Shown piece by piece: positions 18,246-59,657 of a stretch of DNA of 64,000 nucleotides. Origin of the DNA: Bacilli bacterium (GTDB taxonomy: Bacteria; Bacillota_I; Bacilli_A; ML615J-28; CAG-313); NCBI GenBank assembly GCA_045589955.1, contig JAZNQD010000009.1, positions 118,814-182,813 of the forward strand. Direction: 5' to 3'. Position 1 is the stretch's first letter. Each line of letters starts with the position of its first letter. A program made the position numbers and the translations under genes. Under the pieces are notes generated by a model. The model was not told the origin of the DNA. It ran no database searches and worked only from the letters and a program-made list of their open reading frames with translations.

Positions 18246-18268
18246 TAGAACTAGAAAGTTAAGTTCTA
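18246..18268. promoter_or_regulatory. divergent pair of AGTTCTA motifs (tagaact ... agttcta) in the 65-nt region between the two radical-SAM operons
   Basis: Inverted copies of the recurrent 7-mer, one facing each operon. Confidence 0.35.
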
Positions 18269-18274
18269 AAAACC

Positions 18275-18691
18275 ATGAATGAAAATCTAAAAAATAGAAG
18301 AAAATTAGCATATTACATAAACAAATGGGACGACATAAATCTACCATATCATGAAGATTACAAAAATATACCCGAACAAGTGATTTCTTTTTTCAAAACT
18401 GAATCTAACTTGGTATATCCGGCAAAGACAATCTTCGTAGCTATAATTTATGCTAAATGCTTGGAACAATACTTTGATGTGCCTTTTTATGAAAGTTTAG
18501 ATGATATCGAATTGTTATTTGATGACAAATATTTTAACAAGTATACATATTCTCAATTCAAAAATGAATATGATTATATACTAAGTACTCTAACAGATAT
18601 TTTAAACTATCCGGCAGCACAAAAAACGATAGACTATTTTAAAAAAGAGTTTCTCTATGGAATTGATTATAAAACCAACCGGTCGTTGTAA
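18275..18691 (+). CDS. hypothetical protein
   Basis: 138 aa. First gene of the plus-strand operon. Overlaps the next gene by 35 nt. Confidence 0.45.
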   Translation: MNENLKNRRKLAYYINKWDDINLPYHEDYKNIPEQVISFFKTESNLVYPAKTIFVAIIYAKCLEQYFDVPFYESLDDIELLFDDKYFNKYTYSQFKNEYDYILSTLTDILNYPAAQKTIDYFKKEFLYGIDYKTNRSL

Positions 18692-19613
18692 TTTTAATTG
18701 TAAATTTTGCAGTGCGAATTTATTAGATATTAAACACAGTACAACAGTTTCTACTCAATTAAAAACTGTTTTAAATACAATAAAACCTGATAATATTATT
18801 TTTACCGGTGGAGATCCATTACTTGTAAGTCCTGACTATTATAATGAAATCTTATCGCTTGGAAACTGGAATATTGCTTTTACTACCAATTTAAAAGATT
18901 TTTATTTAAATCCCACAAAATGGATATCACTGTTTAAAAATCCGAGAGTTGGCATAGGAACCTCTTTTCAATATGGAAACAAAAGATTATGGGATAACAA
19001 CGCTCCTTATACCGAAAAACTATTTATTGATGTTATGCAAAAATTTTATAATGAAATTGGATATACTCCTCCTTTTATTTCATTAATAGATACAGATAAC
19101 GAAGATAAAGCTTTGGACCATGTATACTTAGCTAAAAAATTAAATACAAAATGTAAACTTAACGGTACATTGCCTCTTGGTAAGTCAAAATGTTTTTATC
19201 CAACTTATAAAATGATAAAAATATGGTTAGAAATCAAAGACTTAGGTTTAGAAGAATATTTAGATACACAAATACAGTTTTATGAAGGGGGTTGTAATTT
19301 CAACACAAGCCTTTATTGTGAATCTACTATTCGTACATTTTGGTTAAACGAACATGGTGAAGTACAATATGGAAATTGTGAAGATTGTTCAACACTAGGG
19401 CAACGTATTCCTTTAGATAAAATCAGACCAATACCGGTAAAAAAACAAATTGAAATAAATGATACTATAAACGATAAATGTTGTTATTGTGAATTATTTA
19501 AATTGTGTAACGCTTGTCGTTCCTTACAACGCATAAATAAACAAACCCCCGAGCACTGTGAAGAAATGCTAAAATTAAAACCAAGAATAATAGAGGCAAA
19601 ATGGAAGATATAA
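18657..19613 (+). CDS. radical SAM / SPASM-like protein, family 2
   Basis: GRCNFNCKFC, FTGGDPLL, C-terminal CCYCELFKLCNACR Cys cluster. Confidence 0.75.
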   Translation: MELIIKPTGRCNFNCKFCSANLLDIKHSTTVSTQLKTVLNTIKPDNIIFTGGDPLLVSPDYYNEILSLGNWNIAFTTNLKDFYLNPTKWISLFKNPRVGIGTSFQYGNKRLWDNNAPYTEKLFIDVMQKFYNEIGYTPPFISLIDTDNEDKALDHVYLAKKLNTKCKLNGTLPLGKSKCFYPTYKMIKIWLEIKDLGLEEYLDTQIQFYEGGCNFNTSLYCESTIRTFWLNEHGEVQYGNCEDCSTLGQRIPLDKIRPIPVKKQIEINDTINDKCCYCELFKLCNACRSLQRINKQTPEHCEEMLKLKPRIIEAKWKI

Positions 19614-20401
19614 AGACATTATATGCTATCCCACATTATAATTGTAACTTAGCATGTCCACATTGTGATTTATTTAAAAAACAAACAAATTATGATGAAG
19701 AGCATTTTATGTATTCATTAAATAATGTAAAAGCAGAAGAAATCGTTTTGTTTGGTGGTGAACCTCTTTTATATAAAGACAAATTACTAAAAATACTACA
19801 AACAAATAAAATATCATCTATTTCAACAAATCTATTAAACATTGATTTAGATATCTTAAATAATCTAAAAAAATATAATATACACATAGCTACATCATGG
19901 AATAATATACGATTAAATAAACAACAATATATAACATGGATAAATAATATACATAAAATAAATATATATAATATTGACTGTATTGTACTTATAACTCTGA
20001 CGGATGATCTGATACACAATACTGAGAAACTGACTGATACGCTGACTGATTTAGATAAAACAAGAATAAGAGGTGTATTATTTGAACAACTATTGGATTA
20101 TTCTAAAGACCAAAGTTTTTATGAAAAAGTAGACACGTTCCTATGTAAGATATCCGAAAATTGGCAATATTCGTTCAAAAACTTAATTATTGACAAATTA
20201 AATACTTGGAATTGTGATTGTAAAAAAACATATACTCTCGAACCAACCGGAATAATCCGTAAAGGTTGTCCACAATATATTCAACCACAAATAGTCAATG
20301 AATGCTTATCATGTTCTTTAGCAAATATATGTAAACCTTGTCCGTTACAAAAGCACTGTTCTTTTCCTAAAAAATTATACGTGATGTTTAAAAATGCTTA
20401 A
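19601..20401 (+). CDS. radical SAM / SPASM-like protein, family 2
   Basis: HYNCNLACPHC, FGGEPLL, C-terminal CLSCSLANICKPCPLQKHC. Confidence 0.7.
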   Translation: MEDIKTLYAIPHYNCNLACPHCDLFKKQTNYDEEHFMYSLNNVKAEEIVLFGGEPLLYKDKLLKILQTNKISSISTNLLNIDLDILNNLKKYNIHIATSWNNIRLNKQQYITWINNIHKINIYNIDCIVLITLTDDLIHNTEKLTDTLTDLDKTRIRGVLFEQLLDYSKDQSFYEKVDTFLCKISENWQYSFKNLIIDKLNTWNCDCKKTYTLEPTGIIRKGCPQYIQPQIVNECLSCSLANICKPCPLQKHCSFPKKLYVMFKNA

Positions 20402-21404
20402 TACTAAATATGCTTTAGATATTGTACTTTTTTCTGACTGTAACTTAAATTGTTTACATTGCTTTCAAACACACATAAAAAATGATATAGATAAACAATA
20501 CTTAAATGACTTGCCACAAATTATACATAAACATTTATTAGAAAAGCTTAAAGCAAATCCTAATATAAATGAAATAACTTTATCATTACGTGGCGGTGAA
20601 ATTTTTCAAGATAGATTTTCCGAAGACCAATTAGAACAATACCTTAATGTCTTTAAATTCGTCATACATAATTCACACGAATATTACCCTCATATAAAAT
20701 TTAATTTACATTGTATGTCAAATGGAATTTTTACAAAAACGAATCGTATCATAGATTTTTTAAAACATAACAATATTTCAATATCTTTATCTTATGACGG
20801 TTACGGTAGATTTAATACAAATACACTTTCTAAATTCAAAGAAAATTGTTTGGAACTAAAATCATTTATTAAAGACATTAGTATAACCTTAACCAAGCCT
20901 TCTGTTGAACAATACCTTTCCTCTGATGAATTACTTTTCTTCACTAATCATAATCTATTACTGGACTTTAACTATTACATTCCAACAAAAAATATCGATG
21001 ACTTAATAATATCAGATGAAGTATTATACGCCTTTTACAATTACTTATTAGAAAAGCATATATTTAATTGCAAATATTTAATCGATTTATTTGAAAGTCT
21101 TCTTACAAATAAAAAAATATATCCTTCTTGTAATTGTCAAAATACCGAAGTTTTAGTTAATGGAAAATATTATACAAACTGTACACTTAATAGTTCTTTA
21201 TCAAATATACAAATAAAAAACAAAGCTTTAAACAAAAGACAATGCTTATTTTGTGAAAATTATAATAATTGTTATGGTTATTGTTGGTTATCTATTCTTC
21301 ATGATAAATATATAATTTCAGAATGTCCACACAAAAAACTATTAATACAGATTAAAACGAACCCAATTTATATCAATAATTACTTAAAATGGAAAACACA
21401 ATGA
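20394..21404 (+). CDS. radical SAM / SPASM-like protein, family 2a
   Basis: SDCNLNCLHC, RGGEIFQD, C-terminal RQCLFCENYNNCYGYCWLSIL. Confidence 0.75.
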   Translation: MLNTKYALDIVLFSDCNLNCLHCFQTHIKNDIDKQYLNDLPQIIHKHLLEKLKANPNINEITLSLRGGEIFQDRFSEDQLEQYLNVFKFVIHNSHEYYPHIKFNLHCMSNGIFTKTNRIIDFLKHNNISISLSYDGYGRFNTNTLSKFKENCLELKSFIKDISITLTKPSVEQYLSSDELLFFTNHNLLLDFNYYIPTKNIDDLIISDEVLYAFYNYLLEKHIFNCKYLIDLFESLLTNKKIYPSCNCQNTEVLVNGKYYTNCTLNSSLSNIQIKNKALNKRQCLFCENYNNCYGYCWLSILHDKYIISECPHKKLLIQIKTNPIYINNYLKWKTQ

Positions 21405-22507
21405 CTTTCTCAATTATTCCATTCTATACTCAACCTAAATCATATGAAATAGCTTGTATGTTATTTGAAAGCTGTAATCTTCGTTGTAAATTTTGCTTTG
21501 AACCACATACCAATAATAAAATTGATACAGCATATATCGAAAGTATTCCAGATTTATTATTACCAGAATTCGAAAAGGTATATCAAAAAGATCCTACTAT
21601 TGAACAAATATATCTTATGTTATGGGGAGGAGAAGTTTTCTATGATAGTTTATCCGATGAAGTATTTCAAACATATTATCGGTTTGTAGATAAGTTAACT
21701 GCATTGTTTAATGAACATTTTCCTAAAGTCAAAATACTATTTTCTTGGTTATCAAATGGTGTATTTACAAAAAGAGAACGCGTTGAAAAGATAGTAAGAT
21801 ATTCAAAAGGTATAATAAATTTCAGTTATGATCCAGTAAATCGATTCTCATCACCAAAACAATTACAGATTATGTTAGAAACGGCTATTTATTTTAAAAA
21901 AATTGGATTAGGCGATAAAATTTCAATTACTTTAACAAAAGATTCTATACACGGTTTTATAACTAACAAATCACATTTAATATTCTTTAATAGTTTAGGA
22001 TATAACATAGATGTTAATTACTATATAGCCAATCCAAACTGGAAAGAATTATTACCAACAGATAATGAAATATTTACATTTATTAAATGGGCTTTAGATA
22101 ACCGTTTATTTAATATGAAAATCTTACAAAAACTCTTACTTCCATATCTAAATCAACCGGTCTCACATTATTGTGATTGTAAATATTGTTCACAGCTAAC
22201 CTATGGTGAATGGAGTGTAGATTGTGCAAAATGTAGCTCTGTATTACCAGCAAAAGATTTTTATGGTGAAGCAACTGAAATTATAAATGAAGAAAATACA
22301 AATGATATAAAAGCAACATTAGGTATACGAAAAAGAAAATGCTTATTGTGTAAATATTATAATTCTTGTCAAATGCCTTGTTGGATTTCAATTTTATTTA
22401 AAGGTTTTGAACCCACAGAGTGTTTTTATAAACAAGCTTTTGAATATATCGAACAGCATCCTACTTTTGTAAAAGAGTTTGAAAGGTGGTTGAAAAACAA
22501 TGATTAA
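21389..22507 (+). CDS. radical SAM / SPASM-like protein, family 2a
   Basis: ESCNLRCKFC, WGGEVFYD, RKCLLCKYYNSCQMPCWISIL. An alternative ATG at 21401 gives an ATGA overlap with the upstream stop. Confidence 0.75.
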   Translation: MENTMTFSIIPFYTQPKSYEIACMLFESCNLRCKFCFEPHTNNKIDTAYIESIPDLLLPEFEKVYQKDPTIEQIYLMLWGGEVFYDSLSDEVFQTYYRFVDKLTALFNEHFPKVKILFSWLSNGVFTKRERVEKIVRYSKGIINFSYDPVNRFSSPKQLQIMLETAIYFKKIGLGDKISITLTKDSIHGFITNKSHLIFFNSLGYNIDVNYYIANPNWKELLPTDNEIFTFIKWALDNRLFNMKILQKLLLPYLNQPVSHYCDCKYCSQLTYGEWSVDCAKCSSVLPAKDFYGEATEIINEENTNDIKATLGIRKRKCLLCKYYNSCQMPCWISILFKGFEPTECFYKQAFEYIEQHPTFVKEFERWLKNND

Positions 22508-23585
22508 TATTCCTTCAGAAAATAGATTTGGTTTTGATTGCTTACTTTTCGAGGCTTGTAATTTAAATTGTACGTTTTGTTTAGAAGCACATAATAATAC
22601 TAAAATTGATTATAATTGGATTCAGTCTATTCCTTTACGTCTAGTAGAAAGATTTAAAAAAGAATATGTAAAATTTCCAAATACTAAATTGATTACTATT
22701 AGATTATGGGGTGGAGAACTGTTTTATGATGCTTTACCAGATTCAATATTCCAAGTATATACAGATTTAGTACAATCTTTTATTACTGAATTTGGAATAG
22801 CCTTTCCTGATATTACACTTTCATTTGCTTGGGTATCAAACGGGGTATTCACAAAAACAGAGCGCTTAATTAAATTATTAAAAAACACAAATAGTCTGTT
22901 AAATATTAGTTACGACCCGGTTGGCAGATATAAGACTAAAAAACAAGAAGAATTAATGTTAGCTAATTGTAAATTATTTACGGACTTAAATCTCTTAGAT
23001 GAAATTTCAATAACTTTAACCAAACCTAATATTCAAGCTTATATTACTAATAAATCTAGATTATTTGATCTTAATTTTGTAAAAAAGATAGATATTAATT
23101 ACTATATACCAAATCCACTTTGGAAAGAATTATTACCAAATGATGAAGATTTGTTTATGTTTTTTAAATGGTGTGCCGATAATAGATTTTTTACAATTTT
23201 AGATTTTAAACGAGTTTTAGATACTTTAACTAAACCAAATGAAAAAGTAGAATTAGTATGTAATTGTCATAAACATCTATCTGCTTGTAAAGACTGTATT
23301 ACCTATAATTGTGTTACAAGCTCTTCTATTTTACCACAAAACCTATTTTATGATAAATATACAAATGAAATAAACGAAGATAATGTTAGTGATATAAAAC
23401 GTAAATTAAGTTTGCATAAAAGAGGTTGTTTATTCTGTGAATATGCTAACATTTGTCCTAAAATCTGTTGGACTTCAATTTTATTTAAAGAATATATAGC
23501 AACAGAATGCCCAATGCAACGTTTATATAAATATCTACAAGACAATAAACAAATATTAGAGGATTATAAAAAATGGAGTTATTAA
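22500..23585 (+). CDS. radical SAM / SPASM-like protein, family 2a
   Basis: EACNLNCTFC, WGGELFYD, RGCLFCEYANICPKICWTSIL. SD AAGGTGG. Confidence 0.75.
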   Translation: MINIPSENRFGFDCLLFEACNLNCTFCLEAHNNTKIDYNWIQSIPLRLVERFKKEYVKFPNTKLITIRLWGGELFYDALPDSIFQVYTDLVQSFITEFGIAFPDITLSFAWVSNGVFTKTERLIKLLKNTNSLLNISYDPVGRYKTKKQEELMLANCKLFTDLNLLDEISITLTKPNIQAYITNKSRLFDLNFVKKIDINYYIPNPLWKELLPNDEDLFMFFKWCADNRFFTILDFKRVLDTLTKPNEKVELVCNCHKHLSACKDCITYNCVTSSSILPQNLFYDKYTNEINEDNVSDIKRKLSLHKRGCLFCEYANICPKICWTSILFKEYIATECPMQRLYKYLQDNKQILEDYKKWSY

Positions 23586-24481
23586 ACGGTTTATCTATAA
23601 TGCCCTCTTTATATTGTAACTATAACTGTGAGTATTGCTATTTAGGGGATTTAAGAAAAAACAAAACTCTTTTAGATTTAGATATACTCGCTAATCGTTT
23701 AAATGAAATAACACAAAACTATACAATTCAACATACAACTTTATATGGTGGTGAAATATCTCTATTACCACAAACATACTTAAATGATTTATTGCAACTT
23801 GTAAAAGATTATAATCCAGCGTTTGTAACAAATTTATCCCAAGAATGGTTTTTAAATTACTGCTTAATAAACAATGTTAAACTTAGTATATCGTTAAATG
23901 AAGAAAGAACCAATTACAATAAAACGTTGCAGATTCTTAAGACGTTAAAAGGTATTAAATCAATTTGTTTATCTGTTGTTGTTTTACCTAGTTTACTAAA
24001 GAAAGATTCTTTTGAAATTCTAGATTTTTTTGAAGATTTAGGGTTTGATGTTATTTTTATTCAATATCACCCTTCTATTCATTCTAAAGTCGTTTATAAT
24101 ATCACAACAAAAGATTACAGTGATTTTTTATTACGTATCCTAAAAGCTAAATACGAACGCGACTACAAATTCAAAATACAAAATGAGATTGTGCTTAGAG
24201 ATACAACATACCGAGCAACGGCTGACAGTTTTATGTTTATTAATCAAAATGGTAATTTCAGTTCAATTAAATATAACGAGAAAGAAGAAGAATATTTCGT
24301 AGAATTTAATACTTTACAAGAATGGAAAGACTTTTGTAAGCAAGAACAAAAACTATATTATACAAAGTGTCATGCTTGTAAATATTATAATAAATGTAAA
24401 GCTGAACATTTAGTCAATCTAGAAAAAGATAATTGTTCAGGTCTATATAATTTATTAGAAGAATATTCACAAATTGGATAA
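23573..24481 (+). CDS. radical SAM / SPASM-like protein (paralog of 3157..4059)
   Basis: LYCNYNCEYC, YGGEISLL, C-terminal CHACKYYNKC...CSGLYNLL. SD AGAGGA. Confidence 0.75.
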   Translation: MELLNGLSIMPSLYCNYNCEYCYLGDLRKNKTLLDLDILANRLNEITQNYTIQHTTLYGGEISLLPQTYLNDLLQLVKDYNPAFVTNLSQEWFLNYCLINNVKLSISLNEERTNYNKTLQILKTLKGIKSICLSVVVLPSLLKKDSFEILDFFEDLGFDVIFIQYHPSIHSKVVYNITTKDYSDFLLRILKAKYERDYKFKIQNEIVLRDTTYRATADSFMFINQNGNFSSIKYNEKEEEYFVEFNTLQEWKDFCKQEQKLYYTKCHACKYYNKCKAEHLVNLEKDNCSGLYNLLEEYSQIG

Positions 24482-24487
24482 CAAGAG

Positions 24488-25168
24488 ATGACTGTAACAA
24501 CTGGACAACTTATCGTAAAAACTAGTCGTGATTCATTAGTCGGTGCAATAAATGACTTTAACGATAGAGTGACAAATGCAATTTATAATCAAGTTGCATA
24601 CAATTCTTCAACGTATCCTTATTTTTCTGGATCGGTGACTTATGGTACAACAGGTGCATCATCAGTAGAAGCATTTGTAAATCCTATTGCTATTCCATCT
24701 GGTCAACTCGCTGCTGTTGATACACGTCCTACATGGTCAATCGGTGATACTATAATTACTGCCTCTACACTTTGGAATAATATGTTATCTATTACTAAAA
24801 CTCTCATAAAAATAAGAGGTTTTACTGCAAATTGGTATCATAGAACAGATAGTACAGATAATTTAAAGCAAACAATAAATAGTGTTGGATTTTTTAATTT
24901 AAGTTGGCCAGCAGTGCCCACAGGTACATTAACTGCAGCTACAGCAACATCAAATTGGACCAGAACAGGAACCTTAAATCCTACACTTTCTCCTGCAACA
25001 CAAATTACATCGGGTGCAACAGCTACAGCCGCTACAATGAATAATACTATTCAAAATTGTTATAATGCTTGGAAAACAAATTGCCTTGACAGTAGAGTAG
25101 TATATAATTTTTATACTTGTCATCAAAATTGTCATAGTAGTTGTCATAGTAGTAGAGGACGTAGATAA
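24488..25168 (+). CDS. family-A-like protein with Cys/His/Ser-rich C-terminal tail (putative substrate)
   Basis: Starts MTVTTGQLIVKT...; family A of 17529 starts MSLATGQTIKYK... The body is T/S/A/N-rich. It ends ...NCYNAWKTNCLDSRVVYNFYTCHQNCHSSCHSSRGRR. Confidence 0.55.
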   Translation: MTVTTGQLIVKTSRDSLVGAINDFNDRVTNAIYNQVAYNSSTYPYFSGSVTYGTTGASSVEAFVNPIAIPSGQLAAVDTRPTWSIGDTIITASTLWNNMLSITKTLIKIRGFTANWYHRTDSTDNLKQTINSVGFFNLSWPAVPTGTLTAATATSNWTRTGTLNPTLSPATQITSGATATAATMNNTIQNCYNAWKTNCLDSRVVYNFYTCHQNCHSSCHSSRGRR

Positions 25169-25882
25169 ATGATATATACTGGTCTACCTTATGATATGGA
25201 TATACTTGGTAATATTGACAATGAAGGTGCGGTTGTTGATATGTCAAACTTAAATTACCCTGGTATACAAAAAGAAGATAATGTTAGAGTAAGTTATATT
25301 TATTTAAGAAATACTGCTTTTAATAATGTTACTTTGGATTTTAATCAAACCTCTTATGAATTTAAACGAGATTTCCTTTTATTTTATATAAATGGTGATA
25401 TATTTTATGAAATCGAATCCTGTACAAACACTTGGATTAAGATACTCGGTTTATATAATCAACAAGATTTTCCAATTGATACGATTTTTACACAAGATGA
25501 ATTATGTCAATTTATAAAAGAGAATTTAACTGAGATCATAAAATTAAATAACATCATAGCATCTTTACCTGTATATTTATTTTTACGTTTAAATATTGAA
25601 GATCCTGAAAATTTTAATTTTAATGATATAGAAACAGATGATACTACAACCTGTAACGATAATATCATTTTTATCATTAAAAACCAATTTTTTAATTTTT
25701 TATATGAAGCTTTAAATGCAGATACACCAAGGATATATTCAAAATTATTCACTGAAACGAATAATCTTTTATTTGAAACAATAATGCAATATACACCTTT
25801 CGGTATTTTATTATATGGAATGAATCAACCAGATTGGTCTAAGTTTGTAGATGGATTAGAAACTATTTGTAAGGATATCTAA
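25169..25882 (+). CDS. hypothetical protein
   Basis: 237 aa. ATG immediately follows the upstream stop. Confidence 0.45.
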   Translation: MIYTGLPYDMDILGNIDNEGAVVDMSNLNYPGIQKEDNVRVSYIYLRNTAFNNVTLDFNQTSYEFKRDFLLFYINGDIFYEIESCTNTWIKILGLYNQQDFPIDTIFTQDELCQFIKENLTEIIKLNNIIASLPVYLFLRLNIEDPENFNFNDIETDDTTTCNDNIIFIIKNQFFNFLYEALNADTPRIYSKLFTETNNLLFETIMQYTPFGILLYGMNQPDWSKFVDGLETICKDI

Positions 25883-25884
25883 AT

Positions 25885-26889
25885 ATGCTTAAACAAATAA
25901 AACCTTTATCAATAGAAACAGTATTACAAGATCCATTATATAAATTTGATTATAGTGCAGATTACACAGAAGAAATTTCTATAGATATACCTAATGTTGA
26001 AACATATACAACACCAAATCAATATTTGCGTTATTTAGTAAATAAATTAAGTACTAATATTTCAGAGTATAAATTAAAATACAATAAAATTAATATCGCT
26101 CATAACAATTTAGATGCTTTTTGTACAAAGTCTAAATATATAACCGTAACATTATTAAAGAGTGATTTAACTACCTTTTCAAACCTTATTCTTACAGATT
26201 CAGAGGATTTGGAATACTTATTACAGCATCAATTACAAGAAATATATTATTTTGGAAATACTGATACTTTAGTTTTACCAACTTGTATCCATGAATATCT
26301 ACAAAACAATTCTTATTTAAAATGTAGTATTTTGGCTTATGATTTACACTTAAGTACAAATAAACTACTCAAAACATATAGTGTTCCTTTTGATATTCCA
26401 ACTTTAAAATTTTCCTGTTTATCAAATACTGCATATTATCCTACATTTAAAGAAAAACATTATTTAGAAATACCTACTCCTAAAGAAATTGATTATATAG
26501 ATTGTTATGCATTATATACCAATTTACCAAAAGAATTATATACTAATATAATCTTTGAAAATAAAACTTTACATTACAATATCACTAATAAACAATTTTA
26601 TGGTGCAGAAGGAATAAATGAAACTAATTTAGCTTTATGCTGTAAACATTTATCTGAAAATCCATTAGATAGAGTTATTGTATTACGTTTAACAAAAGAT
26701 GGTCATTTTATACCTCTTTGGAGTACTAAACAATTATTAGCTTCTTTATATATTGGATATCCTGAAATACCTGTATGTATATTAAGTGAACAATATCATT
26801 TACCTACTTCTTTTATTTCTAAGAAAAATGATATTGACATAGAAAAAACAAAAGATTTCTTAAAACCTTACTTTATGTTACATGACTAA
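25885..26889 (+). CDS. hypothetical protein
   Basis: 334 aa. SD AAGGATA. Confidence 0.45.
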   Translation: MLKQIKPLSIETVLQDPLYKFDYSADYTEEISIDIPNVETYTTPNQYLRYLVNKLSTNISEYKLKYNKINIAHNNLDAFCTKSKYITVTLLKSDLTTFSNLILTDSEDLEYLLQHQLQEIYYFGNTDTLVLPTCIHEYLQNNSYLKCSILAYDLHLSTNKLLKTYSVPFDIPTLKFSCLSNTAYYPTFKEKHYLEIPTPKEIDYIDCYALYTNLPKELYTNIIFENKTLHYNITNKQFYGAEGINETNLALCCKHLSENPLDRVIVLRLTKDGHFIPLWSTKQLLASLYIGYPEIPVCILSEQYHLPTSFISKKNDIDIEKTKDFLKPYFMLHD

Positions 26890-27862
26890 AAAAGTAATTT
26901 ATATAAAACTGACAAATGCTTGTAATTTAAAATGTAAACATTGCTATAATGAGATTATGCAAAATCATAATTTTATGTCAGATAATGTTTTAAATCAAAC
27001 AATACAATATATAAAGACTTTTAAAAACACTGAAATAGATTTACATATACATGGTGGAGAACCTCTTTTATTTGATCTTGATAAAATTGAATATCTTATT
27101 TCTGAATTAAAAGATTATACCTTTAAATGGACAGTTACTACTAATCTAATATATGAAATAACAGATAAGCATTTAAATATTTTTAAGAAGATGCTTCCTT
27201 ATGATAATAATCCTTTAATATTAACTTCTTGGGATTATAAAATTCGTTTTAAAGATAATCAACAATCTTTATGGGAAAATAATGTAAGATATCTAATTGA
27301 AAAAGGTATACAAGTACAACCAATTGTATGTTTAACAAATCTTCTTATAGAAAATTTAAAACCAGAAGATATATTTTTGTATTTTAAAAGATTTAATATT
27401 AAACGTTTTAATTTTGAAAGAATAACTAATACTGGAAATGCTTTAGTAAATAATCTTAGACCTACAAATGAAAATTTACAGAATTGGTTATTAGATGCTT
27501 ATAAAATATATGAAAAACGAAAAGATATTGAAATTCCTTTATTTACAGGTTTAGAGTATTCTTTAAAAGGTATTTTTTTAGGTTGTAGAAATAGACAATG
27601 TACTAATAATGTTATAACGATAAATCCAAATGGTACTATAGCTAGTTGTCCTAATACTGCTGATTATACTTTTAATGATATTTTTACTAATAATCTTCAA
27701 ATATCAAAAAAGGACTATATTACAAATAAAGAAAATTCAAAAGATTTAAGATGTTTAATTTGTGAATTTTATAAATATTGTAATGGAGATTGTTTTCAAT
27801 TAGAATTTGATGATACTAATTGTCCTGGATTAAAAAAACTTTATAAGTACCTTTTAAAATAA
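26882..27862 (+). CDS. radical SAM / SPASM-like protein, family 2
   Basis: NACNLKCKHC, HGGEPLLFD, C-terminal LRCLICEFYKYCNGDCFQLEF. Confidence 0.75.
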   Translation: MTKKVIYIKLTNACNLKCKHCYNEIMQNHNFMSDNVLNQTIQYIKTFKNTEIDLHIHGGEPLLFDLDKIEYLISELKDYTFKWTVTTNLIYEITDKHLNIFKKMLPYDNNPLILTSWDYKIRFKDNQQSLWENNVRYLIEKGIQVQPIVCLTNLLIENLKPEDIFLYFKRFNIKRFNFERITNTGNALVNNLRPTNENLQNWLLDAYKIYEKRKDIEIPLFTGLEYSLKGIFLGCRNRQCTNNVITINPNGTIASCPNTADYTFNDIFTNNLQISKKDYITNKENSKDLRCLICEFYKYCNGDCFQLEFDDTNCPGLKKLYKYLLK

Positions 27863-28135
27863 ATTTTTTTCTTTCTAAATCAATACTTTAATATAACAAT
27901 TGGAAATTTAATTTTTTATTTTTCATTTGTAATTCATTTCTATTATATATATTATATAAACAAATTAGGTTTTAGTAGGGTTTTATTAGGATCTCGTTTA
28001 TTTTTTATTGTCTAAATGACATATCGTCCAAATGACGTCTTAGATTCAGATAAATAATTGTTTACTTTATATCCATATTGATTGTTCCATAATTTTTAGT
28101 TTTACGTTTTAATAAAATATATATATTATTCATAT

Positions 28136-28465: not shown

Positions 28466-28470
28466 AAAGA

Positions 28471-28500
28471 AAGGGCTAACAAAAATTAGCCCTTTTTATA
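28471..28500. terminator. bidirectional rho-independent terminator
   Basis: Stem AAGGGCTAA / TTAGCCCTT with a 6-nt loop, followed by TTTTATA. Lies between convergent genes. Confidence 0.6.
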
Positions 28501-31554: not shown

Positions 31555-31563
31555 TATTAGAAC
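31555..31563 (-). promoter_or_regulatory. variant copy of the AGTTCTA motif (minus-strand GTTCTAATA), about 40 nt upstream of 31518
   Basis: Plus-strand tattagaac. GTTCTAATA matches the downstream portion of the 41814 copy (aaGTTCTAATA). Confidence 0.25.
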
Positions 31564-31660
31564 ATTTTTATAATGAATTGGAAATATTTATAAAAATTGC
31601 CATAAGTACCTGGTGTTCAAATAAATAACTTAAGTATTTTAAGCGAAAAAAGGAGTAAAA

Positions 31661-32362
31661 ATGTCTTGGAACGGTAATAACGAATCGCTTACTTTTCAAT
31701 CTTATAAAAATTATATGTATGGTGATAAAGTATTTATATTAGATGAGATAACTTCAGATAATTGTGCGTATTTAATTGGTGATTTAACTCAATATGTTTT
31801 AAGTGAAGCAAATATGGGCAAAAAGCTAATGTTTGTTATAAATAGTCCAGGTGGTGATGTTAGTGTAATGATTACCATATTGGGTTTAATGAATATGGCA
31901 CGTTTAAATAATATTCAAATTTATACTTTTGTTTTAGGTTCAGCTGGTAGTGCCGCTTCTGTATTAGCCGCTAACGGTGACCAACGTATGATAAATCGTT
32001 TATCTAAGCATTTTATTCATTTTGGTTGTATTTGGGACGTTACTACTAAGCATAGTGAAATTGAAAAAGCTTACGTTCAGAACAAAGAATATGCGGAAAA
32101 TATGACAAAATTATATTTAGATGCGTGTAAAGGTAAATTAAAATTAGAAAAATTATTAGAAATTCAAGCAGACGAACGAGGATATTTAAACGCTGAACAA
32201 TGCTTAAAGTACGGTTTATGCGATTTAATTATAGAAGATGATTTAGATACAAAACTTAAAAAAGAAGAAGAATTTGCTGAATTTGAAGATACTTTTGACG
32301 ATTGGTTAAAAGCTAAGAATAAAAAATCATCTAAAAAACCCGCAAGAAAAACAGGTAAATAA
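31661..32362 (+). CDS. ClpP-family serine protease (possible prohead protease)
   Basis: INSPGGDV, GSAASVLAANGD (catalytic Ser context), IHFG His, YGLCDLII. These align with ClpP INSPGG / GqAASmG / IHQP / YGLVDsIL. Lys-rich C-terminal tail. SD AAAGGAG. Confidence 0.75.
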   Translation: MSWNGNNESLTFQSYKNYMYGDKVFILDEITSDNCAYLIGDLTQYVLSEANMGKKLMFVINSPGGDVSVMITILGLMNMARLNNIQIYTFVLGSAGSAASVLAANGDQRMINRLSKHFIHFGCIWDVTTKHSEIEKAYVQNKEYAENMTKLYLDACKGKLKLEKLLEIQADERGYLNAEQCLKYGLCDLIIEDDLDTKLKKEEEFAEFEDTFDDWLKAKNKKSSKKPARKTGK

Positions 32363-32364
32363 AT

Positions 32365-33861
32365 ATGGATAAGCAAGCGATTTTACAATATTATAATGAT
32401 TTATGTACATCTATTGGGCATAAATTATCAAGAGCTGAATATAGAGAAGTTAAGCCGATATATACTTCTTCTTTGATTGAAAAGTTATGGGGTAATTGGA
32501 CTAATTTTGTTAATAGTGCTATTGTAGATGTAATTGTTACACGTAAAGATGTTCGGCGTGTTATTTCAGCTAAGAAAGATAAAGTTGTAGTATCTTATGT
32601 TAACGATGGTTCGGTAGTTAATTGGGAAGTATTTGAAACTCTTGAAAATTATTGTAAAGAAAATAAAGCAGAATTGGTCCTTTTATGGGGTAAAAATATT
32701 AGACACGATGATAGATTTACCGAAGAGGCTTTTCTTAGACTACAGCCATATTTGGTAACTAAACTTACATTTGAGAAAGATCCTTATTGTATAGTACAAG
32801 ATTTTCTTATTTCACCTACACAAAAGAATCCGTTGTTGAATCTTGATAAACTGTCCACGGATATCAAAACAATAGTAGTTGGTTCAAATAAACAATACTT
32901 GAGAATTTTACCGTATAAACAATATTCGACTTATAGAGTAGCTTGTTCAACAGGTAGTATATCATCTATTGATTACAGAGAAACCGTATCTGGACAAATT
33001 GATTCAAAATATCATAAATTTGGAGCAATTTTATTAGATTGGAATGAAAAACAAGAAAGATATGTTATCCGTAATCTTATTTATAAAAACGGTTGTATTT
33101 GTGATTTAAATAAAAAATATACGACAGATAAGGTAACTAAAATTGATACTTTACCTGCAATGGTTTTAGGCGATTTGCATTTACCAGATGAAGATACAGA
33201 TGCTTTGAGTGATACTATTAAATTTATTAACAAGTATAAACCAAAAGAAGTTATGTTACACGATTTAGCTTCTTGGAATAGCATCTCACATCATTGTTTT
33301 AATCATTATTTATCAAAAGTTATGAATGATACACCGGAAACATCAGATTTACAAACAGAAATAGATGCTGTTGTAGAGCGTTTAACTAAATTTATCAAAG
33401 CTTGTCCTGATAGTAAGTTTAAAGTAGTTAATTCAAATCATGACGCATTTATCGAAAAGTGGTTAGAAGCTGGTGAATTTGTAAAAGATAAACAAAACGC
33501 TGTTCTTGGTGCTAAGTTATTTATAGAATATGCACAAGGACGTAGTATTTTTGACATGTTTTTACCTAAAAATTGCGTAGCTTTAGCAAAAAATACTAGT
33601 TTTGAAGTAAATGGCTTTGAATTAAGTGAACATGGTGACGCTGGTATATCTGGTTTTAGAGGAAATGTTAATTCCTTTAATAAAACTTTTGAGAATTGTA
33701 TTTGTGGTCATACCCATAGTCCAGAAATCTTTGAAAAAACCGTTTATGTCGGAACCTTATCTAAATTAAAATTGAATTATAATCAAAAAGGTATGACAAA
33801 ATGGGTCCATTGTAATGCAATAATACAAGAAAATGGAAGTTTTCAATTAATTTTTGTGTAA
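32365..33861 (+). CDS. protein with C-terminal calcineurin-like metallophosphoesterase motifs
   Basis: Ordered GDLH ... NHD ... GHTH motifs (VLGDLHLPDEDTD, SNHDAF, CGHTHSP). Confidence 0.45.
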   Translation: MDKQAILQYYNDLCTSIGHKLSRAEYREVKPIYTSSLIEKLWGNWTNFVNSAIVDVIVTRKDVRRVISAKKDKVVVSYVNDGSVVNWEVFETLENYCKENKAELVLLWGKNIRHDDRFTEEAFLRLQPYLVTKLTFEKDPYCIVQDFLISPTQKNPLLNLDKLSTDIKTIVVGSNKQYLRILPYKQYSTYRVACSTGSISSIDYRETVSGQIDSKYHKFGAILLDWNEKQERYVIRNLIYKNGCICDLNKKYTTDKVTKIDTLPAMVLGDLHLPDEDTDALSDTIKFINKYKPKEVMLHDLASWNSISHHCFNHYLSKVMNDTPETSDLQTEIDAVVERLTKFIKACPDSKFKVVNSNHDAFIEKWLEAGEFVKDKQNAVLGAKLFIEYAQGRSIFDMFLPKNCVALAKNTSFEVNGFELSEHGDAGISGFRGNVNSFNKTFENCICGHTHSPEIFEKTVYVGTLSKLKLNYNQKGMTKWVHCNAIIQENGSFQLIFV

Positions 33862-34113: not shown

Positions 34114-34329
34114 ATGCAACTGTTTGTTGGAAAGCATTGTATTCCGTGTAAAAATTTAAAAGCACGCTTACAAGAAGAAAACATTGTAGTTGAGCAAATA
34201 ATAGCTGAAGAAAATCAAGAATTGGCAAAAAAGTTTAATGTTAAAGTTTTGCCTACCTTGGTTTTAGATGATGGATCACTGGTTAAAGGCGGTGATGAAA
34301 TTTATGAATGTCTGAAAGGGAGTTTATAA
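34114..34329 (+). CDS. glutaredoxin/NrdH-like redoxin
   Basis: 71 aa with a CIPC (CxxC) active site near the N-terminus and a VLPTLVLDDG...GGDEI pattern typical of small glutaredoxins. SD AAAGGAG. Confidence 0.6.
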   Translation: MQLFVGKHCIPCKNLKARLQEENIVVEQIIAEENQELAKKFNVKVLPTLVLDDGSLVKGGDEIYECLKGSL

Positions 34330-34652
34330 TGTCAGATAAGAAAATTTATATAGCTTTGGGACCAAATGTTTTTGTGAAAGAAGCTGAAAAAGAAGTTAAA
34401 AAGGGCGATTGGATTATTCCTGATTCCTTAGATGTGGATTTTACTTTTGGCGAAGTAATTTCTTGTAGTGAAGGTTATTTTGAAAAAGGTAGCTTTATTC
34501 CAGCAAATGTACGTATTGGTGATAAGGTTGCATTTCCTAAAGTATCCGGTACAAAAGTTACATTTAATGGTCAAAAATTAATTCGTGTTTATATGGCAGA
34601 TATTGTCGCTAAAGAAGTATCTGGTGAAATCTTAGAAGATGAAAAGGAATAA
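34329..34652 (+). CDS. groES: co-chaperonin GroES (Cpn10)
   Basis: About 107 aa immediately upstream of GroEL. IALGPNVFVKEAEKE...GDKVAF...G..V pattern. ATG at 34329 has SD AAAGGGAG (the track ORF starts 21 nt earlier). Confidence 0.65.
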   Translation: MSDKKIYIALGPNVFVKEAEKEVKKGDWIIPDSLDVDFTFGEVISCSEGYFEKGSFIPANVRIGDKVAFPKVSGTKVTFNGQKLIRVYMADIVAKEVSGEILEDEKE

Positions 34653-34655
34653 TAC

Positions 34656-36302
34656 ATGAGTACATCTGCTTATTTTAATAAAGAAACAGAAAAGTATTTG
34701 GTTGATGGTCTAAATTTAGTAGCAAATGCTGTTAAGTCAACCTTAGGTCCAGCTGGTAATACTGTAGTTATTCAACGTGAAGATAAAACCCCATTAATTA
34801 CTAAAGATGGTGTTTCTGTTGCTAAAGAAGTTAAACCGAAAGATGAAAAAGTTAAATTAGGTGCAGACTTAGCGATTTCTTTGGCTCAAAAACAAATGAA
34901 TAACTGTGGTGATGGTACTACAACTGCAACTGTTTTAGGTCAAGCTATTGTAAACAGTGGCGTACGTTTGATTGAATTGAGTGAAAACAAAGTAAATCGC
35001 ACTTCTTTACGTAAAGGTATTGAAAAAGCTAAAGATTATGTAATTGGGCAATTAAATACTTTGGGTAGAGAAATTAAAACTGATGAAGAATTAGTTAATA
35101 TTGCAACAGTTTCTGCAAACGGTGATGAAAAATTAGGTAAAATTGTAGCCGAAGCTTATAGAAAAGTTGGAAAAGCTGGTGTAGTATTAGTCGAAGAAAC
35201 TAAAGACAGAGAAATTAGACTTGATTTTAAAGAAGGTATGACCTTAAATAAAGGTTGGACTTCACAATTTTTTGTAAATAATCATGAAGAACAAGTTGCT
35301 GAATATGATAATCCTAGAATCGTATTGTGTAATTCTAAGATTTCTAACTTGAATTCATTGATTGACGTTATTCAAGAGCCTGTTTCTAAAGGAAATCCTG
35401 TTGTTGTAATTGCAGAATCTTTTGATACAAGCGTTACTCAAGGTTTGGCTATGAATATTATTCGTTCTGGTGGTCAAATTAAAGTTGCTTGTGTTGAGGC
35501 TCCTGGATATGGGGATCGTCGTTTGGATATCTTGCGTGATTTAGGAATTTATGTTGGCGCAGATGTTGGTGATGATCCTATGGGTATCAAATTTGAATCT
35601 ATGTCTACTGCTTCATTTGGTACTTGTGAAAAAATCATCATTAAAAAAGATGAGACTATTATTCGCGGTGGTAAAGGCGATCAAACTAAAATCAATGCTA
35701 GAGTGGAAGCCATTGAAGGTTTGATTAATAATCTTAAAGAGAATGATAGTTATGAGCGTGAACAACTTGGTAAACGTTTAGCTTCTCTCACGACTGGCGT
35801 TGCTGTAATTCAAGTTGGTGGTTCTTCAGAAGAAGAAATTAAAGAATTGCGTGATAGATTAGATGATGCGCAATGGGCAGTTAAAGCAGCATTAGAAGAA
35901 GGTTATTTACCTGGTGCTGGTAATACATTGCTTCATTTATCAGAAAAAGTAGTAGACAACGTTGAAACAACTGACGTTGATGAGGCTTTGGGTGTAAATA
36001 TCTTTGCAAATGCTTTAAAAGCACCGTTTAAAACAATACTTGAGAATGCTGGTGTTAATGTAAACGGTATAATGAAGGTTGTTCTTGAAAAAGGCGATTA
36101 TAATATTGGTTATAACGCAAAAACTTTACGGGTTGTTAATTTACTAGAAAATGGTATTATCGATCCTGTTAAAGTGGTTAAAGGAACGGTTTATGCCGCT
36201 TCTTCTATTGCATCTGTAGTACTCACATCTAGCGTGATGATTTGTACAGATCCGGTTGAAAATAAAGGTTTATCCTTGAATATGATGCCGGGTATGATGT
36301 AA
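34656..36302 (+). CDS. groEL: chaperonin GroEL (Cpn60)
   Basis: GPAGNTVVI, ITKDGVSVAKEV, GDGTTTATVL, C-terminal Met-rich MMPGMM. Confidence 0.9.
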   Translation: MSTSAYFNKETEKYLVDGLNLVANAVKSTLGPAGNTVVIQREDKTPLITKDGVSVAKEVKPKDEKVKLGADLAISLAQKQMNNCGDGTTTATVLGQAIVNSGVRLIELSENKVNRTSLRKGIEKAKDYVIGQLNTLGREIKTDEELVNIATVSANGDEKLGKIVAEAYRKVGKAGVVLVEETKDREIRLDFKEGMTLNKGWTSQFFVNNHEEQVAEYDNPRIVLCNSKISNLNSLIDVIQEPVSKGNPVVVIAESFDTSVTQGLAMNIIRSGGQIKVACVEAPGYGDRRLDILRDLGIYVGADVGDDPMGIKFESMSTASFGTCEKIIIKKDETIIRGGKGDQTKINARVEAIEGLINNLKENDSYEREQLGKRLASLTTGVAVIQVGGSSEEEIKELRDRLDDAQWAVKAALEEGYLPGAGNTLLHLSEKVVDNVETTDVDEALGVNIFANALKAPFKTILENAGVNVNGIMKVVLEKGDYNIGYNAKTLRVVNLLENGIIDPVKVVKGTVYAASSIASVVLTSSVMICTDPVENKGLSLNMMPGMM

Positions 36303-41757: not shown

Positions 41758-41766
41758 TTTTAAGAG

Positions 41767-41813: not shown

Positions 41814-41820
41814 AGTTCTA
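41814..41820 (+). promoter_or_regulatory. AGTTCTA motif upstream of 41851, with TATAAT 13 nt downstream
   Basis: aaagttctaataataaaagtatataattgg. Confidence 0.3.
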
Positions 41821-47664: not shown

Positions 47665-47693
47665 TTGTTGATATTTATAAAGTTCTATACAAT
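47665..47693 (+). promoter_or_regulatory. candidate sigma-70-type promoter plus AGTTCTA motif
   Basis: TTGTTG - 17 nt - TACAAT. The AGTTCTA motif (47681..47687) lies in the spacer. Confidence 0.3.
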
Positions 47694-50545: not shown

Positions 50546-50552
50546 AGTTCTA
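50546..50552 (+). promoter_or_regulatory. AGTTCTA motif upstream of 50620
   Basis: attttatagttctatatatag. Confidence 0.3.
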
Positions 50553-51339: not shown

Positions 51340-51364
51340 TATTTAGTTTTTTAACGAGAGCGTA

Positions 51365-51396
51365 GGGGATTAGATTATGTCTAGTCCCCTTTTTAT
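51365..51396 (+). terminator. rho-independent terminator
   Basis: Stem GGGGATTAG / CTAGTCCCC (one G-U pair), followed by TTTTTAT. Confidence 0.55.
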
Positions 51397-51425
51397 ATAA
51401 GTTCTGATAAATAGGAGGGGAATTG

Positions 51426-52112
51426 ATGTGTAAATTAATAAAAATGTTATTACGACTATTTTTTGGTAAAACAGAAGAAGTTGAGGTTAAACAAATGTTG
51501 TCTTTAGAGCAATTATATAAAATAAATGGTAATTTAAATAAAAAAGAATGTGAATATTATTTAGAAAGTTTAAATGTTGTTTTACCAAATAAAGAGATTA
51601 ATACTTCTTTGAGATTATGCCATTTTTTAGCACAAATTATTCATGAGAGTGGACATTTTAAATATAAATCTGAAAATTTAAATTATTCTGCTAATGCATT
51701 AAAGAGTGTTTTCTGTAAATATTTTAAAACTGATGCCATTGCCAATGAATACGCCAGAAAACCGGAGAAGATTGCTAATAGAGTATATGCAAATCGTATG
51801 GGTAATGGTGACGAAGCAAGTGGTGATGGATGGAAATATAGAGGTAGAGGTTTAATTCAATTAACAGGTAAATGTAATTATGACGCTTGTGGAAAAGCAA
51901 TTGGATTAGGTTTAATAAATAATCCAGATTTATTGACTGAATCGGCTGAGGCTAGTGTTTTGGCAGCTTGTTGGTTTTGGAATAAAAATAATTTAAATCA
52001 ATTTGCAGATAAAGATGATATTGTAACTATTACTAAACGCATTAATGGTGGTACTAACGGTTTAGAAGATAGAAAGAGTAATCTGGCTAAGGCTAAGTGC
52101 GAATTGCTATAA
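51426..52112 (+). CDS. endolysin, glycoside hydrolase family 19 (chitinase-like lysozyme)
   Basis: HFLAQIIHESGHF and GRGLIQLTGKCNY...AACWFWNKNN match the GH19 signatures. ATG at 51426 has SD AGGAGGGG (the track start at 51423 is TTG). Confidence 0.7.
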   Translation: MCKLIKMLLRLFFGKTEEVEVKQMLSLEQLYKINGNLNKKECEYYLESLNVVLPNKEINTSLRLCHFLAQIIHESGHFKYKSENLNYSANALKSVFCKYFKTDAIANEYARKPEKIANRVYANRMGNGDEASGDGWKYRGRGLIQLTGKCNYDACGKAIGLGLINNPDLLTESAEASVLAACWFWNKNNLNQFADKDDIVTITKRINGGTNGLEDRKSNLAKAKCELL

Positions 52113-55618: not shown

Positions 55619-55622
55619 AATA

Positions 55623-55652
55623 AAAGCTCCTTTTTATGGGAGCTTTTTTATA
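55623..55652. terminator. bidirectional rho-independent terminator
   Basis: Stem AAAAGCTCC / GGAGCTTTT, with T-runs on both sides. Confidence 0.6.
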
Positions 55653-57215: not shown

Positions 57216-57229
57216 TTTATTTTATCTCT

Positions 57230-57592: not shown

Positions 57593-57594
57593 TT

Positions 57595-59613
57595 TTAATT
57601 AACTCCTTTTAATGGGGCATAATAGCAATAGTTAATTGTACCTACACCTTGAATGTTAATTACTCTACCTTTATCAATAATAGCAGTTGCAGAACAAATT
57701 TTAGATTGTGTATTTGTATTATCATTTCGGCTAATCCAATCACCAGATTTTTTATCAATAATACTAGCTACACAATTTCCTGTAGATTGAGCTGAGATAT
57801 GTACAAAGCAATCATAAGGGGCTGTCCAATCTAACGCAGTTCCAGAAGTAATATTAATGCTCACCTTGGAATCATAGTCTGGTATGCCCCAACCGACAAC
57901 CGTTTCTCTGTCAGCAGAACTATTCTTCATAATTGCGTTGGTAAGCACATTACTAGCAGCGATAACATTTGCATCTTGAATAGTTTCACCAACGTAGAAG
58001 TAGAGTGAACCATTACCCTTACAAACTGTATAACTTATGTAGGTGTATGAATTACCTCCTTCACTGTGAACCAATGTTCCTTTTGGCAATACTGGAGATG
58101 TGTACACATTATACCCGGTATCATGTTGCCATAAAGTAAAAGTTTTTCCATCTGGTCTTGTCACAAGAACTTTAGCGTCATCAGACCCACTTTCGCTGTA
58201 ACCAGTGCACCACACAATAGCATTACAAGGTAACGTAAAGTCAGTACCCCAAGTTTTTCCTATATCTGTATTTGATATTTTATCTTCACTACCATTTAAT
58301 AACGGCAATCTGAACGTTGTATCTGCTGTATTGATAACATAATCATAGTCATCATAGGTATCTGTACTGACTTTAACAGAAACACCCTTGACAATTTCAG
58401 TTCCATTGTAAATCTTTAACAACCATTCATAAAAGCTTACATAAATTGCTCCGCTATGAAAAGAGCCATTAGAGATCAACCAAGAAGCGTTGTTAGGCTC
58501 GCTTTCAAAGTATTGCGACATACCTAAAAAGAATGGATTATTAAGCTCAATCTCGCGAGTTATATCAACACTGTCTTCTGAACCCTTGGCCACTTGGATA
58601 AAGTATGGGTATTGGATAGCTTCTTGTTGAACAGGAGCATTGTCTTGGTAGGTTGATGAACTGCGGGAAGCGTCAAACTTCATTTTATAACCAGAACCGC
58701 TTGCTCCACTAACATAATTTGACACAAACTGTTCATCTATATAAAAAGCACCTGTCCTTTCACCCCCAGAGGCATAGCCCGCTGTTTCTCTTGGGGTAAA
58801 ACTACCAGTAATATTCGGTAAACTCTCAGTCTTAGTACTTCCCATCAAAGCTAAATCTTGTAAACCATTAATATTTATAACTTTAGGCAAACGGATAGTA
58901 CCGGCTTCATCATCAATCACAAATTTACCGCATTGTCCTAAGACTGAATTTGTTACTTCAGCTTGCCAATTTTCTTCTGTTGCTGCAAGGTTAGGGTTTA
59001 ATTGAATAACAGCTTTAATTCTATCTGTGAAAGATACGAATTGTGATTGACTAATGACTTGACCGTTTAAATAGCGTCTTTTATTTTGTGTTTCATCGAT
59101 TCCAAAAGGCGCAATACCAATATCACCAATTTCTAAACCACCAGAACTTTCACCTGAAATATCAATTACACCGTCTTTAGTAAAATAAACTGTATTTTCA
59201 TCTTTTGTTTCAACAGCTTCATAATCTTCTTCTGAACCTAACCATAATTTAATATTAGCGTTCGGATCATTTTGGTTTATGAGTGAAATAGCTTGTAGTG
59301 TATTTTCTGCAGTTTTTATAATTGTTTGATCGTCTGGAGTACCTGCTTTTGCTAATTCTTGTTGTAAATCGGTTTGTTCTGCGATATTACCTGTAATTTT
59401 ACCCCATTCTGGTTTTGTTTGAGTATTACTGATTACGCCGTCTACAATTTCTATACCTGTACCAGCACTTAACTTAGATTGTACATTTAAATCGTCAAGA
59501 GTTATTTCTCCTGATAATTCAATACCATCAATTTTAGGCTTATTTTCTAGTAAATCATAATTGCGTGTACCTTGCGTATTGGCTATGATTTGTTTACCTT
59601 GTCTAATGGTCAT
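57595..59613 (-). CDS. tail fibre / receptor-binding protein, paralog 2
   Basis: 672 aa. Extra ~155 aa N-terminal region, shared core, divergent C-terminus ending PLKGVN. Confidence 0.65.
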   Translation of the reverse strand: MTIRQGKQIIANTQGTRNYDLLENKPKIDGIELSGEITLDDLNVQSKLSAGTGIEIVDGVISNTQTKPEWGKITGNIAEQTDLQQELAKAGTPDDQTIIKTAENTLQAISLINQNDPNANIKLWLGSEEDYEAVETKDENTVYFTKDGVIDISGESSGGLEIGDIGIAPFGIDETQNKRRYLNGQVISQSQFVSFTDRIKAVIQLNPNLAATEENWQAEVTNSVLGQCGKFVIDDEAGTIRLPKVININGLQDLALMGSTKTESLPNITGSFTPRETAGYASGGERTGAFYIDEQFVSNYVSGASGSGYKMKFDASRSSSTYQDNAPVQQEAIQYPYFIQVAKGSEDSVDITREIELNNPFFLGMSQYFESEPNNASWLISNGSFHSGAIYVSFYEWLLKIYNGTEIVKGVSVKVSTDTYDDYDYVINTADTTFRLPLLNGSEDKISNTDIGKTWGTDFTLPCNAIVWCTGYSESGSDDAKVLVTRPDGKTFTLWQHDTGYNVYTSPVLPKGTLVHSEGGNSYTYISYTVCKGNGSLYFYVGETIQDANVIAASNVLTNAIMKNSSADRETVVGWGIPDYDSKVSINITSGTALDWTAPYDCFVHISAQSTGNCVASIIDKKSGDWISRNDNTNTQSKICSATAIIDKGRVINIQGVGTINYCYYAPLKGVN

Positions 59614-59650
59614 TTGTTAATATTCCTTACCTAATATATAAACTAATTTA

Positions 59651-59657
59651 TAGAACT
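59651..59657 (-). promoter_or_regulatory. AGTTCTA motif (minus orientation) about 45 nt upstream of the 59613 start
   Basis: Plus-strand tttatagaactttt is the reverse complement of aaaagttctataaa. Confidence 0.3.

Follow-up and report, generated by a model that had tools for sequence, protein, structure and literature searches.

AGTTCTA, a conserved heptamer at operon starts in an uncultivated jumbo-phage clade, is the likely core of a phage-specific promoter class

Which machinery recognizes the heptamer AGTTCTA, which recurs ahead of operon-initial genes on both strands of a 64,000-nucleotide (nt) stretch of DNA deposited as part of a Bacilli bacterium (assembly GCA_045589955.1, contig JAZNQD010000009.1, positions 118,814 to 182,813), and does it act as DNA or as RNA? 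This whole stretch, which we call the window, is a segment of a highly divergent, AT-rich phage genome (~29% GC) encoding a distantly gp20-like portal, a prohead-protease fusion, GroES/GroEL, SbcC/SbcD, a T5 A1-like phosphoesterase, an endolysin and tail-fibre-type proteins; the remaining proteins mostly have no PHROG or Pfam family match, and the ribosome-binding sites of its genes are strong Shine-Dalgarno sequences (AAAGGAG). A megablast search with 20 kilobases (kb) of the window against deposited phages returned zero matches at the nucleotide level, and tblastn with the portal, the ATPase and the A1-like protein returned only remote ones (23–32% identity), so that there is no annotated relative to lend transcription data. 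Relatives at 45–98% protein identity were found on contigs from IMG/VR and from metagenomes, the longest of 263 kb, and we therefore assign the window to a clade of uncultivated jumbo phages with genomes of roughly 200–260 kb. Our comparison included ~35 related contigs overall. The query with window positions 17529–18209 retrieved no relatives, and the tail-protein query retrieved unrelated phages that have only a fibre domain in common and whose intergenic DNA is free of AGTTCTA.

The window contains eight exact copies of the heptamer:

16439–16445, minus strand: 38 nt before the ATG of gene 15672–16400; heads a long minus-strand run that includes radical-SAM-like genes.
18246–18252, minus strand: 36 nt before the ATG of gene 17529–18209; half of the divergent pair TAGAACT-N9-AGTTCTA.
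18262–18268, plus strand: 6 nt before ATG 18275, where the plus-strand radical-SAM operon 18275–27862 is predicted to start without a leader.
36396–36402, plus strand: behind the hairpin at 36333–36355 and 30 nt before the conserved ATG 36433 of a gene for a 376-amino-acid (aa) protein; the portal gene follows later in the same run.
41814–41820, plus strand: behind the terminator at 41764–41797 and 30 nt before ATG 41851 (827-aa gene; operon to 47203).
47681–47687, plus strand: 42 nt before ATG 47730 (929-aa protein with an N-terminal prohead-protease domain).
50546–50552, plus strand: 67 nt before ATG 50620 (239-aa gene); conserved in the related contig L237.
59651–59657, minus strand: 37 nt before ATG 59613 (672-aa virion/tail-type protein; operon down to the terminator at 55622–55647).

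Seven of these had been listed by the first-pass annotation of this DNA, and all seven are present as it described; the copy at 16439 had escaped it. The heptamer is not in excess over the whole window, with eight copies against 12.2 ± 3.2 in shuffled sequences. Its distribution is highly skewed: all eight copies fall within the 1,777 nt of true intergenic DNA (~1.8 kb, and not the ~3 kb given by the first-pass annotation), and none in ~62 kb of coding sequence (Fisher's exact p = 1.2e-13). Each copy faces the adjacent downstream gene and lies 6–67 nt ahead of its start codon. No other 7-mer of the window is as enriched in intergenic DNA, the Shine-Dalgarno word AAAGGAG included.

Congruent results were obtained outside the window. 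A strand-specific count over ten clade loci gave 41 sense copies at most 100 nt upstream of gene starts and 7 elsewhere, a 98-fold upstream enrichment (p = 1.9e-45) that again made AGTTCTA the top 7-mer, while the same measure was 1.3-fold for TATAAT and 1.1-fold for TTGACA. Around the portal, seven clade loci keep the heptamer in orthologous intergenic regions whose flanks are essentially unalignable (47–53% column identity), and in two genomes the motif has shifted to 9 nt before the ATG, a turnover of position with retention of the sequence. A mobile promoter cassette was rejected, as the flanks are not conserved. Upstream of the 376-aa gene, the motif is present in 26 of 26 distinct metagenomic relatives (25 with exact AGTTCTA, one with GGTTCTA), and both the window and its relatives repeatedly show a terminator followed by the motif and then by a gene. 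These results establish AGTTCTA as a real and strongly conserved signal at operon starts.

To place this signal at the level of DNA or RNA, we compared 234 kb of clade coding sequence with 200 synonymous-codon shuffles. The sense strand holds five copies, each in the last 12–67 nt of a gene and just upstream of the next one; outside these 3' ends there are none, against 16.6 ± 3.9 expected. The antisense strand holds 4–5 copies against 17.1 ± 4.0 expected, and none of the 200 shuffles was as low as the observed counts on either strand. Purging from both strands indicates a DNA-level signal such as a promoter, for which spurious sense and antisense starts would both be harmful, whereas with an RNA signal only the sense strand should be depleted. 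Moreover, one clade copy sits 22 nt upstream of a tRNA-Glu gene, and the motif is therefore not a translation signal. No hairpin was found at the motif sites (mean minimum free energy −3.16 versus −2.91 kcal/mol in shuffles), nor did Rfam give any family match there.

Next to the invariant heptamer, the sites have little in common. In a profile of 38 sites, positions −34 to 0 relative to the motif carry no information and positions +16 to +30 downstream of it are not conserved; within the heptamer, the C at the fifth position (fourth of GTTCTA) is invariant in all profiled sites. TTGACA-like or TTTACA-like hexamers (at least 5/6 matches, 16–18 base pair (bp) spacing) occur at 0 of 41 sites, below the control offsets, and sigma-70-type sites were not enriched anywhere examined. 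With the motif's first A numbered +1, a T-A step occupies +13/+14 at 19 of the 41 sites, compared with 13.6% in the background (p = 4e-7), and most of the remaining sites have this step displaced by one position.

The distance to the start codon is also constrained. An ATG lies 6 nt after the motif at window position 18262 and at position 17702 of the clade locus L014, a large subclade has a conserved ATG 6, 7 or 9 nt after it at the 376-aa gene, directly behind a terminator hairpin, and at no site is the gap shorter than 6 nt. Since the ATGs lie at least 6 nt after the motif, transcription would start at about its seventh downstream nucleotide; from this geometry we infer that AGTTCTA occupies roughly −13 to −7 and that several transcripts are leaderless or have leaders of at most 3 nt. 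A spacing of exactly 6 nt between motif and start codon, in the absence of a Shine-Dalgarno sequence, was observed at window position 18275, at L014 position 17715 and in the 376-aa orthologues L330, L334, L335, L341 and L344. This arrangement predicts leaderless mRNAs for operon-initial genes, in contrast to the strong AAAGGAG ribosome-binding sites on which the genome otherwise relies. When we checked the clade contigs, which are DNA assemblies, for ends at the predicted start, none began there.

We consider it likely that a phage-specific promoter class uses AGTTCTA as its core recognition element. Promoters of this class would have the heptamer as their single element, located at −10 and with no −35 element to accompany it, and their reader would differ from the host housekeeping holoenzyme. 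The first-pass annotation had suggested a phage-specific promoter or sigma-like site at operon starts, and the strand-specific enrichment, the conservation, the coding-DNA purging, the placement behind terminators and the copy ahead of a tRNA gene all support this suggestion. In the mechanism that we propose, the heptamer at about −13 to −7 would direct initiation ~7 nt downstream, usually at an A preceded by a T. The reader would most likely be a phage-encoded sigma-like factor that redirects the host RNA polymerase, as T4 gp55 does; a phage-encoded polymerase could also fill this role but we judge it less likely.

The genes under such a promoter class would be middle or late ones, in the operons for virion proteins, tail fibres, lysis and radical-SAM proteins. 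Exact copies precede the 376-aa gene with its portal-containing operon, the 827-aa operon, the prohead-protease fusion, the 239-aa gene and the tail-type 672-aa protein and, in relatives, long tail-fibre modules as well; the endolysin gene is preceded by a copy with one mismatch. Two divergent radical-SAM-like operons begin at the back-to-back pair 18246/18262. No copy was found at the SbcCD, DHFR, HNH or GroES/GroEL-region genes. This pattern fits a middle/late promoter class.

The closest parallel is with the late promoters of T4, which carry TATAAATA at −10, have no −35 element and are read by gp55 together with gp33 and the gp45 clamp. Both classes would have a single short element at the −10 position without a −35 partner and a start a few nt downstream, both would drive virion and lysis genes, and both would need a phage-specified reader, a putative one in our case. 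The likeness to T4 extends to the distantly gp20-like portal and to the order SbcC then SbcD, which is that of T4 genes 46 and 47. The two differ in sequence: AGTTCTA is unrelated to the T4 consensus, contains G and C and has no TATA core, and TATAAATA itself shows a 4.6-fold upstream enrichment in the clade, typical of AT-only words. By analogy, AGTTCTA would be T4-late-like in function and geometry and not a member of that class by consensus. In T4, gene 55 lies beyond genes 46 and 47; the matching flank in this clade holds HNH, DHFR and tail-fibre genes.

Other known promoters were also compared. The housekeeping sigma-70/sigma-A promoter consists of TTGACA and TATAAT separated by a 16–18 bp spacer; TTGACA (at least 5/6 matches) is found at that spacing at 0 of 41 sites, and GTTCTA lacks the −10 A at position 2 and the T at position 6, which form the A(−11)/T(−7) signature that the sigma-70 family recognizes. 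Promoters of T7-type single-subunit polymerases have a conserved block of ~20 bp from −17 to +6, and here there are only seven invariant bases and a weak T-A step. An N4-type hairpin promoter was discarded because no conserved hairpin exists at the sites. Among jumbo phages, AR9 has the early promoter AAATATATATTAT-N6-G and the late promoter AACA-N6-TA/G, phiKZ has the late promoter TATG, and the early promoters of both start transcription 6 nt downstream of the consensus (PMC5312081). Our motif is like these in being a short phage-specific consensus near the start site of a jumbo phage, with a similar predicted geometry, but none of their consensus sequences matches the AGTTCTA profile, and the search with the window portal found no AR9 or phiKZ relative. 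Full-text literature searches did not find the heptamer described as a phage promoter and returned only primers and unrelated matches. By sequence, AGTTCTA matches no described promoter class among those checked.

Several points weigh against a phage-specific −10-position promoter class. The start site and the promoter activity are both inferred from sequence, the relatives are not statistically independent and the gene maps come from a simple open reading frame (ORF) heuristic. The heptamer also heads radical-SAM operons, and what we call late may be middle plus late. The reader, too, did not appear: PHROG and Pfam searches of most window ORFs and of a ~30 kb flank of a 237-kb relative gave no match to a sigma factor, an RNA polymerase or MotA/AsiA. 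This search covered ~95 kb of clade sequence, and ~140–170 kb of each genome lies outside it. No homologue of gp55, gp33 or gp45 was found in the clade sequence scanned, and Protein Data Bank (PDB) sequence searches with four large uncharacterised proteins gave no match. Scans of viral contigs for the back-translated beta-prime motif NADFDGD yielded, among the matches listed, mostly giant eukaryotic viruses, and none of the loci fetched belonged to the clade.

A bolder proposal, which we put forward only tentatively, is that AGTTCTA sets the specificity of an undescribed phage device, be it a sigma-like factor that has diverged strongly or a polymerase of the phage. In this rumen/gut clade of jumbo phages, such a device would launch many virion mRNAs in leaderless form, with the same promoter class over ~20 radical-SAM genes.

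Among the other explanations, the best surviving one is that AGTTCTA is the −10 element of a host alternative sigma factor exploited by the phage, which we consider unlikely. It would account for the failure to find a cognate factor in the ~95 kb of clade sequence, and there is a partial match to a known class: the group-5 sigma factors TcdR, BotR, TetR and UviA, often located on mobile elements, use promoters with a highly conserved −35 TTTACA and a −10 GTTATA (PMC4031146). The GTTCTA core shares five of six bases with this clostridial −10 element and differs at its fourth position, the C that is invariant here. The defining −35 TTTACA, however, is missing at 41 of 41 sites, and a TcdR-type promoter was rejected on these grounds. 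The strong genome-wide purging from coding DNA fits pervasive use by the phage, though it is compatible with a host factor. We know of no other bacterial sigma consensus that resembles AGTTCTA.

The first-pass annotation had likened the motif to the MotA boxes of T4 middle promoters. A MotA box lies close to −30 and depends on a −10 element of the sigma-70 type, located 12 ± 1 bp downstream, to which the activator would recruit the host sigma-70 holoenzyme. AGTTCTA shares with a MotA box its shortness, asymmetry, phage specificity and location at operon starts, and AT-rich −10-like hexamers are easily found downstream of it. The geometry is nevertheless different. ATGs follow the motif at 6–9 nt, behind terminators, and in one case a tRNA gene begins 22 nt past it, so that a start ~30 nt downstream would fall inside the genes; this places the motif at −10 and not at −30, and the analogy finds no support. 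A placement of the motif at −35 was likewise rejected. In addition, there is no downstream −10 element at 12 ± 1 bp, the region from +16 to +30, where a −10 at fixed spacing is expected, is devoid of information, and the PHROG scans of the clade sequence covered gave no MotA or AsiA family match. We regard a MotA-type box as very improbable.

Equally improbable is an RNA-level element, be it a processing site in the 5' untranslated region, an RNase target or a translational operator. The motif does lie always on the sense strand upstream of start codons, as such an element would. Against this stand the antisense-strand depletion described above (4–5 copies versus 17 expected), the copy ahead of the tRNA gene, the lack of an associated structure or Rfam family, and the short distance from a terminator to an ATG 6–9 nt past the motif, which leaves no room for a separate promoter. 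Least probable of all is an operator for a repressor or regulator overlapping ordinary host-type promoters, which is suggested by the inverted pairs at two loci (window 18246/18262 and L014 ~17690/17702) but countered by the single asymmetric copies at ~95% of sites, by the location of both dyads where divergent transcription is plausible, and by the lack of an accompanying sigma-70-type −35 or −10 at sites where sigma-70-like sequences are not enriched.

As for these inverted, back-to-back pairs, they read TAGAACT-N9-AGTTCTA at window positions 18246–18268 and TTAGAAC-N6-GTTCTAA at L014 ~17690–17708. They suggest divergent promoters with −10 elements only 6–9 bp apart, at which two polymerases would probably exclude each other.

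Besides the exact copies, we recorded one-mismatch variants and the terminators next to the sites:

37551–37557, plus strand: variant GGTTCTA, within the final codons of the 376-aa gene and 39 nt ahead of ATG 37597; the orthologues in L001, L002 and L004 have exact AGTTCTA.
51400–51406, plus strand: variant AGTTCTG behind the terminator at 51364–51390, 16 nt before the endolysin gene 51423–52112; L237 has TGTTCTA there.
31558–31564, minus strand: variant TGTTCTA, 39 nt before ATG 31518 (180-aa and 819-aa genes, to the terminator at 28470–28495); plausible weaker site.
36333–36355, plus strand: terminator-like hairpin after GroEL, just upstream of the 36396 motif; the scan called it on the minus strand, and the T-run follows on the plus strand.
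41764–41797, plus strand: intrinsic terminator immediately upstream of the 41814 motif.
51364–51390, plus strand: intrinsic terminator immediately upstream of the 51400 variant.

As a class, one-mismatch variants are intergenic in only 7 of 224 cases; they are not enriched in intergenic DNA, and recognition thus appears stringent. The variants at 51400 and 37551, both overlooked by the first-pass annotation, are backed by relatives (L237 for the former; L001, L002 and L004 for the latter). Of the two variants that it did propose, the one at 31558 is plausibly placed, and the ATTCTA at 52155 was rejected, as it has two mismatches and no support.

Further observations concern the motif and its surroundings. 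In L006, two AGTTCTA copies at 3165 and 21065 have no convincing ORF after them; one of these stretches contains the T-arm-like GTGATTCGAACAC, and ARAGORN and Rfam gave nothing on the downstream sequence of either. They may be phage non-coding RNAs or tRNA remnants under the same promoter. Window positions 27863–28135 form a gene-free, extremely AT-rich gap (273 nt, ~22% GC) that separates the radical-SAM operon from a 109-aa ORF, with no Rfam match and no exact AGTTCTA, only the one-mismatch words ATTTCTA and AGTTTTA.

The genes around the motif deserve a brief description. The long divergent operons at 3157–14408 (minus strand) and 18657–27862 (plus strand) consist largely of paralogous-looking genes for proteins of 300–370 aa; of ten genes sampled, seven gave weak matches to Pfam Radical_SAM, and a Nol-like carbamoyltransferase is encoded at 4624–6255. 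Some 20 radical-SAM-like genes in one phage are unusual, and raise the question of whether they serve hypermodification of DNA or virion, or a ribosomally synthesised and post-translationally modified peptide. The 376-aa protein (36433–37563) is highly conserved and always encoded behind a terminator and AGTTCTA, upstream of the portal. Searches of PHROG, Pfam and PDB sequences found nothing for its family, a profile of seven sequences included, and the protein is probably a major virion protein of an unrecognised type. The regions 34308–36302 and 31661–33861 encode the GroES/GroEL pair, a ClpP/S49-like protease, the T5 A1-like phosphoesterase ("DNA transfer protein") and a thioredoxin-like protein; this operon has no motif and presumably represents an earlier gene class.

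With respect to the host, L237 (JBJFGR010000015.1) is a 23.5-kb contig that was binned into a Succinivibrionaceae metagenome-assembled genome and is a fragment of a clade phage, syntenic with window positions 47.7–55.6 kb at 52–77% protein identity. Either this phage was mis-binned or its placement hints, weakly and as the only such lead, at a Succinivibrionaceae host. The endolysin family is otherwise widespread across Gram-negative bacteria.

Phage-specific promoters are a well-known kind of element, and the existence of this motif is in itself not surprising. Its value lies in what it offers for a ~200–260 kb jumbo-phage clade whose proteins are mostly unannotated: a transcription map that delimits operons and flags the middle/late class, and that puts large arrays of radical-SAM genes under co-regulation with virion genes. 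From the motif one would expect leaderless late mRNAs and also, encoded elsewhere in the genome, a sigma-like factor or polymerase dedicated to it, with an unusual specificity for a −10 element containing G and C. A 7-bp promoter that is stringent and avoided in coding DNA also offers an easy way to recognize clade members in metagenomes and, if the reader were identified, an orthogonal promoter/reader pair might be obtained. AGTTCTA is thus useful for annotating an otherwise opaque clade, and points to an undiscovered reader with an unusual specificity.

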